From IMG/VR virus record IMGVR_UViG_2718218304_000001, positions 50,160 through 114,159 of that record: 64,000 nucleotides of DNA; one strand, written 5' to 3'. Positions 1 through 64,000 of the stretch are shown here, piece by piece. The notes under the pieces are model-generated. The model ran no database searches, was not told where the DNA came from, and saw only the letters and a list, made by a program, of their open reading frames with translations. Numbering within the stretch: the stretch's first letter is position 1; each line of letters begins with the position of its first letter. The stretch comes from a virus (Duplodnaviria > Heunggongvirae > Uroviricota > Caudoviricetes). The translations under genes and the position numbers were made by a program.

Positions 1-87
1 ACACGACCGCTAAACAATTCGGCCAAAATTTGACGTAAAGAACGAGGACGTTTAGTTGCAGAAGTGAAATAGGTTTGACGTGCCATG
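1..87 (-). CDS. hypothetical protein, 5' end only (gene continues beyond window start)
   Basis: ATG at about 85-87 on minus strand with frame open to the window edge (MARQTYFTSATKRPRSL...); truncated, so absent from ORF track. Confidence 0.25.
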
Positions 88-234
88 TGGACTCCATCCA
101 GTGTCAGAAAGAGTTGCGGCTGGCGATCGCCAGCCGCCTTTCTCGTTCCATCCTGGAACTGTGTCTTACCGACACATTGTCATCCTGACGCTGATAAGAT
201 ACATGATTTAAAATGATAGGTAAACACTTACTTA

Positions 235-825
235 CTACTTGTTATAAACAAAACCAATATCTTTCTTGTGAGGCATATCTGCTGCTGAAAAAGCTGCGAT
301 CTTCGCGAGTCGATCACATATTTCATTTTCACGATGCCCGGCGTGACCTTTAACCCACTTCCAGCGAACATTATGTCGACTTGCGGCCTCATCCAGACGC
401 TTCCACAGATCAACATTCTTTACCGGTTTTTTGTCAGAAGTCATCCATCCATTGCGTTTCCACCATTTCATCCACTGTGTCATGCCGTTTTTCAGATACT
501 GGCTATCAGAGTACAAAATAACGTTGCATGGATATTTCAAACGCTCCAGCCCGATAAGTGCCCCCATCATCTCCATGCGGTTATTGGTGGTGCTATGAAA
601 ACCATCTGAGAACTCGCGTTCCTCACCACCATACTGGAGAACTATACCGTAACCGCCCGGGCCACCCGGATTTTTAAGGCAAGAGCCATCACTGAAGATT
701 TTCACGGTTTTAAGCTGGGGATTGAACTCTACGACAGGCGTTGTGGAATTGGTGCGGGGAGAATTTTTGTTTTTGTCATTTTTGCGAGTTTTTGCTTGCG
801 ATCGGGCTGGTGTCTTCGTCGTCAT
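235..825 (-). CDS. rnhA: ribonuclease HI
   Basis: Track ORF 235..879 (GTG start); internal ATG at 825 preceded by AGGAG. Protein has DGSC...NNRMEL...SDSQY...HAGH...NE..D motifs and close similarity to E. coli RNase HI as I recall it. Confidence 0.85.
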
Positions 826-62700: not shown

Positions 62701-63990
62701 AGTTTTGCTCTGAGATGCTGCCGTCGCACTGCCTGCCGCCTCTGTTGCTTTCGTGGATGCCGTCGTGGCACTGCCCTTCGCTGCTGACGCCTGTCTGGTC
62801 GCCTCATCTTTTGAAGCAGACGCAGATGATGCCGATGACGCCGCCGAACTGGCGGACGATGCGGCAGCCGTTTTTGAGGATTCTGCGCTGGTTTCCGACG
62901 CTTTCGCGTTCGTTTCGGATGTCTTCGCTGCGGAAGCAGACCTCGCTGCTGCGCTGGCCTGTTCAGTGGCTTCGCCAGCCTTCGTTGTGGCTGTTGAAGC
63001 AGACGATGCGGCACTTTCTGCCGATTTTCCGGCGGCGGTGGCACTGGCTGAGGCCTGCCCGGCACTTGTTGACGCGGCACTGGCAGACGACGCAGCCGCT
63101 GTTTTTGAGCCTGCCGCAGCTGAGGCGCTCTGTCCCGCTGCCGTCTCAGAAGACCTGGCGTTCGTCTCGGACGTTTTTGCCGCCTTCGCGGAATTTCCTG
63201 CCGCCGTTGCCGAGGAAGCTGCGCTACTGGCGCTCAAGGATGCGTTCGTTTCTGATGATTTCGCTGCCTCTTTTGAGGCCGCCGCATCCCGGGCTGAGGT
63301 GGCAGCTTCTGACGCTTTCGTGGTCGCGGTGGATGCAGAAGTGGCTGCTGATTGTTGTGACGCTGCAGCATTCGTTTCAGATTTTTTCGCAGCAGTTGCA
63401 CTCGCACTTGCGGCACTTTGTGAGGATGCCGCAGCGGATGCACTTTGAGACGCTTGAGAGGCTTTTTCTCCAGCGGTATTGGCGCTTTCTGCTGCTGCGG
63501 CAGCACTGGCCGCCGCCTCACGAGCTTTGTCACCAGCGGCATCAATCGCGTCAGTGTTATTTTTATACCACTCAACGTTTTCGTTGTGCTCGTTGACGAT
63601 CTGCATCAGCGGCTTAACGGCCACTTCTGTACCGTCTTCACGCTCGATTGTCACCTCATCCAGCGCAGTCAACCAACTGCGCATGGACTTGGAATCAGCC
63701 GACATGCGCGACATTAGCGCAGTAAAGCGCGCGCTAAACTGTGTTAAGTCGCCTTCATAGGTCGTAATGATTCGGCACGGAACTTCAGACTGAGTTTCGC
63801 CGGTATAAGGTTCTGAGAGAACAATGTTCGTATCACTGGTTACGCGCTTGATCTCATACAGCTTATTGTCGGGGCCAATGACGATCATCCCCGGCAACAC
63901 ACCATTAGCTGTTACGTTCCAGGCTGTCCCTGCCCCAACCAGAGTATTGCTACCCTGTGTAAATGTGATAGTACCTTCCCTGTACCACAT
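59743..63990 (-). CDS. large tail fibre protein with C-terminal intramolecular chaperone (peptidase S74) domain
   Basis: 1415 aa; ~250-aa Ala/Ser/Thr-rich low-complexity tract; repeated GNQNTTGNAATATKLQTAR units; C-terminal ...SDRRSKRNIRKIERALDKLEQIEGVLY resembles the endosialidase chaperone domain. Confidence 0.75.
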   Translation of the reverse strand: MWYREGTITFTQGSNTLVGAGTAWNVTANGVLPGMIVIGPDNKLYEIKRVTSDTNIVLSEPYTGETQSEVPCRIITTYEGDLTQFSARFTALMSRMSADSKSMRSWLTALDEVTIEREDGTEVAVKPLMQIVNEHNENVEWYKNNTDAIDAAGDKAREAAASAAAAAESANTAGEKASQASQSASAAASSQSAASASATAAKKSETNAAASQQSAATSASTATTKASEAATSARDAAASKEAAKSSETNASLSASSAASSATAAGNSAKAAKTSETNARSSETAAGQSASAAAGSKTAAASSASAASTSAGQASASATAAGKSAESAASSASTATTKAGEATEQASAAARSASAAKTSETNAKASETSAESSKTAAASSASSAASSASSASASKDEATRQASAAKGSATTASTKATEAAGSATAASQSKTAAESAATRAEAAADRAEEIAGAVAMEDASLTTKGVVKLSSAVDSTSESLAATPKAVKVVNDNANSRVPSNRKINGKALTADITLTPKDIGTLNSITMSFSGGAGWFKLATVTMPQESSVVYISLIGGAGFNVGSPHQAGISELVLRAGNGNPKGITGALWKRTAVGLTNFAWINTSGDTYDIYVEIGNYATSVNIHWDCTANATVSIYTSPTYSASKPSSVTDGVVYTMYSTHQKPTPLDIGALPTTGGTVSGPLSVTGGLTGSLNGNASTATKLQTARSIGGVGFDGSANINLPGVNTTGNQNTTGNAATATKLQTARTIGGVAFDGSANINLPGVNTAGNQNTTGNAATATKLQTARNINGVKFDGSGDININTLVSRGRVTALSGSTQGTAGIQMYEAYNNSYPTMYGNVLHMKGASASGEGEMLVGWSGTDGAHAPVYVRSRRDTSTANWSGWAQVYTTAHKPTAKDVGAAQTFSASYSTGAGNWTTAEFIAWLKERGAFEVPYWMMKGSWSYADNKIITDTGVGNICLAGAVIEVLGTEGAMTIRVTTPTTTTGGGIACAQFTYINHGSAYAPAWRRDYNTTLKPTAADVGALPISGGTMTGVLTLQNVSQPLKTQGGGILANDGNLYINKSGFAGWIDALFMKNSGGTMSGQLKIRSTDGLRIYDAAYGMIFRRSENNFYLIPTAKDQGENGDIGSLRPFYVNLTNGRVAMGNGAVVDGGLGLGVVNGLGGNSIVLGDNDTGFKQNGDGILDVYANSAHVFRFVNSTLQSLKPLSVTGDIASSAWVYANRFSINSGSGAWIDMRNQNVIFGGNAVSTNSAQALLRQDHADRKFFLGGLGNSQFGFYMINNSRTANGTDAAAYLQNDGTWVCAGNGSFNDVYIRSDRRSKRNIRKIERALDKLEQIEGVLYEIQVCGRYEQSGGLIAQDVQNVQPELVTVDHNDQSGEPRLRLNYNGVIGMLVEAVKELREEVRELKAKM

Positions 63991-64000
63991 GTTGAATATG

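Follow-up and report, generated by a model that had tools for sequence, protein, structure and literature searches.

We identified the 64,000-nucleotide stretch analysed here (the window; IMG/VR record IMGVR_UViG_2718218304_000001, positions 50,160 to 114,159) as very probably about 60% of an SSU5/pHCM2-type Escherichia coli phage-plasmid of the Cyrano/pLF82 and pECOH89 lineage, a siphovirus that persists as a prophage in the form of a circular, low-copy plasmid. A first-pass annotation, made from the sequence alone, had proposed a phage-plasmid resembling SSU5 and pHCM2. Both parts of that proposal hold: every component that it listed is located at definable coordinates and is intact, and the window is collinear with both relatives. 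Given relatives at 97-99% identity, this collinearity and the plasmid location of the group, we conclude that the phage-plasmid reading is supported and that the element is already known. Its kind and lineage have been catalogued, typed by plasmid tools and studied experimentally, and the window represents an ordinary member. The main value of the confirmation is that a phage-plasmid can be recognised from sequence reading alone.

Window positions 1-25 kb are 98.3% identical at the nucleotide level to Escherichia phage Cyrano (the same element as pLF82 of E. coli LF82), and dozens of E. coli plasmids, all circular and of 100-115 kb, match these positions at 98-99% identity with 95-100% of the query covered. 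The remaining window, cargo excepted, has a similarly high identity (98-99% over 25-kb stretches) to Cyrano and to circular E. coli plasmids. The backbones of Cyrano/pLF82 and of the pECOH89-type plasmids pHH12_P1 and pYPE3-114k are 97-99% identical to that of the window and have a matching gene order. Common to all are repA with its iterons, parA with its partner gene, an AtaT/KacT-type toxin-antitoxin pair, a repressor-integrase module, an intein in RecA, a gene pair resembling PDC-M06 and the lysis cassette. pYPE3-114k also carries the fimbrial operon and phd/doc cassette of the window but is without segment 27366-28164. Cyrano differs more: it is without the 43.3-50.7 kb insert (insertion sequence (IS) debris, fimbriae and phd/doc) and the gp38 adhesin, it has another gene in the slot of the PD-T4-3-like nuclease, its tRNAs number three where the window has four, and the distal part of its tail fibre differs. 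No record identical over the entire window was found in the collections searched, and the window is a new mosaic of known modules.

More distantly, SSU5 gives collinear blastn matches of ~70-90% identity (about 77%) and pHCM2 of 72-91% (mean 81.5%). Both share with the window the iterons on either side of repA, the replication, recombination and nucleotide genes, the lysis cassette and the position of parA. SSU5 is without the regulator-integrase-glutaredoxin-Gp49 block, the RecA intein, the toxin-antitoxin pairs of the window and the fimbrial cassette, whereas pHCM2 does carry the regulator-integrase block. We rejected a P1-like classification: the top phage matches are SSU5-type only, no P1 record is among those listed, and Doc, at the protein level, is the sole P1-related similarity identified. 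Affinity with P1 does not extend beyond the imported Phd/Doc pair and the way the origin is laid out.

The backbone is present in 256 of the 5,426 complete E. coli genomes, at 413 places, 411 of them on plasmids and 2 on chromosomes. Plasmid replication and partition genes (RepA with its iterons, and ParA) are interleaved on one molecule with lysis, tail-fibre and phage replication genes, an order also seen in over 80 plasmids that were closed independently and in SSU5, which was sequenced from virions. The gene map, assembled from a mechanical list of open reading frames (ORFs), family scans and comparison with annotated relatives, holds about 66 genes, of which 51 have minus and 15 plus orientation. 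The rule that backbone genes lie on the minus strand and accessory modules on the plus strand is therefore approximate: repA and the cargo are indeed on the plus strand, but the minus strand carries parA and its partner.

The lineage has been characterised in Cyrano, which was published as SSU5-like and is a plasmid at 5.5 copies per cell (PMC9928086). Its virions were detected as DNase-protected genomes by quantitative PCR and as siphovirus particles by electron microscopy, and ciprofloxacin induces it (PMC9928086). Its repressor (CYRAN_45, 'putative repressor', the orthologue of the helix-turn-helix (HTH) regulator in the window) and its toxin-antitoxin genes, including the orthologues of the DUF1778/GNAT pair, are transcribed in lysogens (PMC9928086). 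pECOH89 and similar "phage-like plasmids" have been described since 2014 (PMC3999498, PMC5427194, PMC8085198), and the SSU5 group is a standard category of phage-plasmid surveys (PMC7969092, 10.1101/2025.09.12.675607).

The replicon is organised around repA, which encodes a Rep_3-family initiator (Rep3_N, E = 3.9e-9; 37.5 bits against a Pfam cut-off of 22.4 bits). The gene is an intact full-length ORF whose product aligns end to end with SSU5 RepA (SSU5_069); a sequence search against solved structures gave no match. MOB-suite types the replicon of the relatives as rep_cluster_488. The mechanical ORF and many public annotations, in which the product is a 404-amino-acid 'RepB family' protein, open the gene at 17658, inside the first iteron. 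Because a Shine-Dalgarno sequence precedes the ATG at 17778, the alignment with SSU5 RepA starts at the methionine encoded there, and many plasmid records re-oriented on repA begin exactly at base 17778, the real start is almost certainly this ATG and not 17658. Public records would then over-extend repA into its own iterons.

The iteron 16-mer GTATGCTGTCAGCGGT has 20 matches in the window (at most 3 mismatches), compared with 0.38 expected by chance, and 17 of the 20 are clustered in two arrays of one orientation. Five lie in 21-bp phase directly 5' of repA and twelve follow the gene, as expected from the proposal of a RepA gene bracketed by iteron arrays; neither the full-length RepA nor the intact arrays are decayed remnants. 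To the left of the origin iterons are the DnaA boxes TTATTCACA and TATCCACA, at 17535 and 17544. Next come six GATC sites in an AT-rich 60 bp, where this motif is denser than anywhere else in the window (background 4.05 per kb). The start of repA is straddled by two DnaA-like boxes, TGTCCACA. The P1 R replicon consists, in order, of DnaA boxes, a GATC-rich spacer, five iterons, repA and a long downstream array. The order of the origin elements in the window matches this P1 oriR/incC/incA arrangement, although the window RepA is a Rep_3 protein without a sequence match among solved proteins. The shared order suggests the same logic, in which RepA and DnaA would open the origin and the downstream array would limit copies, with methylation possibly involved. 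By analogy, the downstream array is likely a copy-control element comparable to P1 incA. The element has both its own Dam-family adenine methylase (1829-2422) and the GATC cluster at the origin (17557-17615), and the two may be linked, as in the Dam dependence of P1 oriR.

Within a backbone that is conserved elsewhere, the replicon diverges fastest. Almost no nucleotide match was found between 17616-19454 of the window and 19362-21624 of SSU5, while both flanks align at ~75%. SSU5 RepA has 47% amino acid identity to that of the window and the SSU5 iteron is AACCACTGTAGAGAGT. The comparison indicates that the design of the origin was kept and its specificity changed, as expected of distinct incompatibility types. 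This divergence bears on incompatibility and on plasmid typing.

The partition ATPase is small. It carries the deviant Walker-A motif KGGPGKST and has no N-terminal HTH, like the ATPases of type Ib (ParF/ParG-like) partition systems, and its nearest solved structures are TP228 ParF (4DZZ) and ParA (5U1G), at E = 1e-10; against the NCBIfam model ParA_partition it scores 115.7 bits, below the 180-bit cut-off. In this it differs from P1, which has partition of the ParA/ParB/parS type. The stop of the 119-amino-acid partner gene and the start of parA share position 55584. The partner has an invariant N-terminal MGDLAKR, a core patterned like a ribbon-helix-helix protein and a basic tail predicted to be disordered; the N-terminus and core are conserved among 12 homologues. 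Its sole PHROG match is phrog_5111, a function-unknown family. Its sequence pattern and gene position fit the small ribbon-helix-helix partner of type Ib systems and make it a candidate centromere-binding protein. We found no support for the label 'RelE/ParE toxin' that its Cyrano homologue carries. Upstream of parA, positions 56253-56365 are nearly invariant relative to SSU5, whereas the surrounding DNA is 80-88% identical; this block has no obvious repeats and is a candidate promoter or operator, possibly the centromere. Of the ParA-type partition locus proposed in the first-pass annotation, the ATPase is thus supported, and the partner and centromere are predictions.

Both toxin-antitoxin pairs of that annotation are confirmed by family and structure matches, with E-values of 1e-72 to 1e-79 for the toxins against the solved structures of Doc and AtaT/KacT. 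In the first pair a DUF1778 ribbon-helix-helix antitoxin gene precedes the GNAT gene, as in the TacAT, AtaRT and KacAT systems, whose GNAT toxins acetylate tRNA; over its full length the GNAT protein matches, at E = 1e-75 to 1e-79, both AtaT (6GTS/6AJM) and KacT (5ZGN). The second is a type II Phd/Doc addiction pair shared with the P1 prophage, for Doc at the protein level: Doc is ~91% identical to P1 Doc (3K33), and its Fic motif HIFNDANKR is intact.

The Phd/Doc pair is part of an imported 5.8-kb cassette. Positions 44859-50673 are 99.1% identical to part of a tRNA-Phe (pheV) island on the E. coli PSS-11 chromosome and also contain a Yeh-like chaperone-usher operon, whose four genes follow the Yeh arrangement of major subunit, chaperone, usher and tip protein. 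This cassette is not present in Cyrano, SSU5 or pHCM2. Homology to the SSU5/pHCM2 backbone ends at ~43260 and resumes at ~50750, and the 7.5 kb between consist of IS debris and the cassette. No terminal inverted repeats were found in the IS debris (43261-44858). As phd/doc lies within a segment resembling a chromosomal island, it is not an ancestral stabiliser of the backbone; the comparison with relatives indicates that it arrived together with the fimbriae. In the PSS-11 island a pdcA fragment comes after the cassette, as it does in the P1 addiction operon.

Of the 5,426 complete E. coli genomes, 109 have the fimbrial operon, at 79 places on chromosomes and 38 on plasmids, as alleles of ~99% and ~86% identity, each found on chromosomes and on plasmids. 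We tentatively suggest, as a possibility that we favour less than its opposite, that the cassette is being exchanged between chromosomal pheV islands and the slot in which SSU5-type phage-plasmids take up cargo. Phage infection could then spread an adhesin operon, and lysogens would gain a new adhesion phenotype. No description of fimbriae as cargo of SSU5-type phage-plasmids was found in the literature searched, and the cassette common to this element and a chromosomal island is one lead of interest.

Several points weigh against the identification as a phage-plasmid. The head, tail-tube, tape-measure and terminase genes are not within the window. The episomal state and inducibility of this copy are inferred from its near-identical relatives, and the roles of the downstream iterons, of Dam and the GATC sites and of the recombinase are drawn by analogy from P1 and F. 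Searches of Pfam, NCBIfam and PDB sequences with the ParA partner gave nothing meaningful; the AlphaFold2 model of the partner, from a 12-sequence alignment, is of low confidence (pLDDT 63, pTM 0.23) and a Foldseek search of the PDB with it returned no match; and a repeat scan of 54900-56700 (seed 7) detected no array of centromere repeats. Finally, some SSU5-like plasmids of other hosts, among them a Klebsiella element, are described as plasmids with conserved phage genes and not as active phages (PMC8969562).

This last description fits a reading in which the element is a phage-derived plasmid that no longer makes infectious virions, its phage genes being kept for other reasons or decaying. 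The window ends at the tail-fibre start codon, and its virion-module genes are the tail-fibre and lysis genes alone. The element took up IS debris and the chromosomal cassette, and it is missing (at 20971-21051) the SPFH/Band-7 gene and small membrane gene that lie between the RecA and DUF7238 genes in SSU5, pHCM2 and pHH12_P1. We consider this reading unlikely. The backbone ORFs of the window are all full-length relative to Cyrano, SSU5 and pHCM2, neither the lysis cassette nor the tail fibre is damaged, and Cyrano, 97-98% identical over the shared backbone, makes virions (PMC9928086).

The element is very improbably an integrated prophage, in which the tyrosine recombinase beside the tRNAs would integrate it and the plasmid genes would be relics. 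The recombinase is ~1 kb from four tRNA genes, and two of the backbone places in complete genomes are chromosomal, but all the others are on plasmids. RepA and ParA are intact and conserved, as are the iterons, the four tRNAs are complete genes and not att-site fragments, and Cyrano and pHCM2, which share the recombinase module, are plasmids. A chimeric assembly, or a cointegrate, that joins a phage to an iteron plasmid unrelated to it, to which the interleaved genes and a few relatives with 190-320 kb records resembling cointegrates might point, has next to no likelihood given the independently closed plasmids and the virion-derived SSU5 genome with the same order.

For the phage-plasmid that we prefer, we propose the following life cycle, its plasmid-mode steps being drawn from anatomy and from the named model systems. 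In plasmid mode, RepA bound to the five origin iterons, with host DnaA at the flanking boxes, would open the AT-rich, GATC-dense stretch. The twelve downstream iterons would titrate or handcuff RepA, holding the copy number low by the logic of P1 oriR/incC/incA. The ParF-like ParA and its small basic partner would segregate the copies, and the AtaT/KacT-type GNAT pair and the P1-type Phd/Doc pair would make loss of the plasmid costly. The HTH regulator, which neighbours the tyrosine recombinase, probably silences the lytic genes, and the recombinase probably resolves multimers. In phage mode, the minus-strand backbone would provide the replisome, recombination functions, nucleotide supply, lysis cassette, tail fibre and gp38 adhesin of the phage itself, and the head, tail and packaging genes would be located past position 64000; in pHCM2 the tail genes come directly after the tail fibre. 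The plus-strand slots would hold exchangeable cargo, namely fimbriae, toxin-antitoxin pairs, anti-phage genes and a cold-shock gene. The coordinates of all these features are collected in Table 1.

Table 1. Features located in the window, in window positions, with the match or remark on which each name is based
Feature	Coordinates	Strand	Basis or remark
Nucleotide/DNA metabolism block	235-16557	-	Family scans, annotation of relatives
RNase H, 3'-5' exonuclease, kinase-like ATPase, pyrophosphohydrolase, NrdB, NrdA	within 235-16557	-	
Dam-family methylase	1829-2422	-	
DHFR	5266-5742	-	
ThyA	6154-7284	-	
SbcC-like	13326-15242	-	
SbcD-like	15472-16557	-	
Left part of origin: DnaA boxes TTATTCACA and TATCCACA, then six GATC sites, AT-rich	17535-17615	+	
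Origin iterons (5)	17656-17757	+	Consensus GTATGCTGTCAGCGGT, 21-bp phase, directly 5' of repA
repA, Rep_3-family initiator, 364 amino acids	17778-18872	+	Rep3_N
Downstream iterons (12)	18872-19404	+	Orientation as origin iterons
RecA-family recombinase, 779 amino acids	21051-23390	-	RecA match
LAGLIDADG intein, 422 amino acids, in RecA P-loop (Walker-A)	21933-23198	-	Intein_splicing, LAGLIDADG_3 matches
FEN/5'-3' exonuclease	23659-24654	-	
gp32-like single-stranded DNA-binding protein	24664-25692	-	
UvsY-like mediator	25810-26241	-	Name from Cyrano annotation only
Two-gene module, 74 and 187 amino acids, PDC-M06 A/B match	26496-27344	+	PADLOC
cspA-type cold-shock gene with full thermoregulator 5' untranslated region	27496-27914	+	Coding sequence 27674-27889
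DnaE polymerase	28193-31699	-	
AAA_5 ATPase	31880-33115	-	
CobT/VWA protein	33211-35319	-	
HTH regulator	35882-36268	+	Convergent with recombinase
Tyrosine recombinase	36263-37366	-	Convergent with HTH regulator
tRNA cluster: Ser(TGA), Thr(TGT), Tyr(GTA), Asn(GTT)	38391-39044	-	
ATP-dependent DNA ligase	40471-41793	-	
IS debris, left cassette edge	43261-44858	+	rve/HTH_21 matches
IS3-family orfB, intact, with truncated orfA	43977-44843	+	
Imported 5.8-kb cassette, fimbrial operon and phd/doc	44859-50673	+	
Fimbrial major subunit	44985-45536	+	Pfam
Fimbrial chaperone	45538-46272	+	Pfam
Fimbrial usher	46284-48776	+	Pfam
Fimbrial tip protein	48767-49807	+	Pfam
phd	49986-50213	+	PhdYeFM, E = 6.6e-13
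doc	50213-50590	+	Fic/DOC, E = 4.9e-9
Primase	50724-51935	-	
DnaB-like helicase	51996-53336	-	
GIY-YIG protein related to PD-T4-3/CMoRE type IV restriction nuclease	54405-55172	+	PADLOC, PDB 9U7U
parA partner, 119 amino acids, candidate centromere-binding protein	55225-55584	-	Abuts parA
parA, small Walker-type partition ATPase, 222 amino acids	55584-56252	-	MipZ/AAA_31/CbiA
parA upstream block, ~115 nucleotides, candidate promoter/operator, possibly centromere	56253-56365	-	
DUF1778 (TacA/AtaR-type) antitoxin and GNAT toxin	56571-57369	+	TacA1, E = 5.7e-26
Lysis cassette	57402-58832	-	Translations, PHROG
o-spanin, overlapping i-spanin, lipobox ISGC	57402-57617	-	PHROG Rz-like
i-spanin	57538-57789	-	PHROG Rz-like
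Endolysin	57791-58510	-	phrog_873
Holin candidate	58497-58832	-	Named in Cyrano annotation only; phrog_5093, function-unknown
gp38-type adhesin	58895-59737	-	GP38, E = 1.7e-69
Tail fibre, 1415 amino acids, C-terminal S74 chaperone domain	59743-63990	-	Peptidase_S74, E = 4.8e-11

The HTH regulator is a candidate lysogeny repressor, and the tyrosine recombinase a candidate multimer-resolution or integration enzyme. Both belong to a block (35418-38968) that comprises a small ORF, the regulator, the recombinase, glutaredoxin, Gp49 and three extra tRNAs. The block is present in pHCM2 and Cyrano but not in SSU5, and it may decide the stable lysogeny of group members.

The DNA metabolism set expected from the first reading (DnaE, gp32-like single-stranded DNA-binding protein, FEN, ligase, ribonucleotide reductase, ThyA, DHFR and tRNAs) was found in full by family and tRNA scans. 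A recombinase is present as well, but the 'UvsX-like' protein is actually of the RecA family and is interrupted by a LAGLIDADG intein with the junction GPPSAGK|C...SHN|T. The intein is shared with Cyrano and pHH12_P1, and it is not found in SSU5, whose RecA has 358 amino acids, or in pHCM2; certain relatives list LAGLIDADG endonucleases near nrdA or dnaE. Pfam gave nothing for the UvsY-like protein. The backbone DHFR has 89.9% identity to SSU5 DfrA51 and keeps residues A6, I13, D26 and S48, which were reported to be important for trimethoprim resistance upon over-expression of the gene (PMC12217456).

An Rfam scan of the window at the gathering threshold identified the cspA leader and the tRNAs only, and a permissive scan of the gene-poor region 38100-40000 gave only sub-threshold matches. 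For ~780 nucleotides beside the tRNA cluster (39045-39822), the gene tables of SSU5, Cyrano and pYPE3-114k list nothing. This interval is ~74% conserved relative to SSU5, and tmRNA-like Rfam matches at 39647-39828 are sub-threshold.

From the plus-strand slots it can be seen what phages of this kind are able to carry, namely adhesins, addiction modules and a likely anti-T-even nuclease, to which the backbone adds the DHFR that is 90% identical to DfrA51. The nuclease is a GIY-YIG protein that matches the PADLOC PD-T4-3 model (E = 1.3e-23). Its residues 12-230 align with residues 17-243 of CMoRE (9U7U; E = 2e-15) across both domains, the N-terminal GIY-YIG nuclease and the C-terminal domain that senses modification. 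CMoRE is a type IV nuclease that cuts DNA containing hydroxymethyl- or glucosyl-hydroxymethyl-cytosine (PMC12923530), and the two-domain match suggests that the window product is likely an anti-T-even restriction nuclease. The same slot holds a DUF2971 gene in SSU5 and pHCM2 and a hypothetical gene in Cyrano.

The first-pass annotation had not reported the fimbrial operon, the IS remnant or a third two-gene module (26496-27344). The products of this module match the candidate defence system PDC-M06 (PADLOC, E = 1.2e-19 and 1.3e-32), and the 187-amino-acid protein belongs to the PHROG family 'excisionase and transcriptional regulator'. The HicA/HicB assignment of the Cyrano annotation found no Pfam or NCBIfam support. 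Between this pair and dnaE sits the cspA-type gene, with a leader matching Rfam RF01766 (185.7 bits) and a product with a CSD domain (E = 1.4e-33).

The lysis cassette and tail fibre bear out the proposed S74 fibre and overlapping spanins. The spanins match the Rz-like families phrog_1026 and phrog_1275, and their genes overlap by 80 nucleotides; the Peptidase_S74 domain occupies residues 1320-1374 of the tail fibre. A T-even-type gp38 adhesin follows the tail fibre. As Cyrano has no such adhesin and close relatives have unlike distal fibre parts, host range probably varies. The tail-fibre gene also contains a tandem repeat with a 120-nucleotide unit (61643-61903; 2.2 copies).

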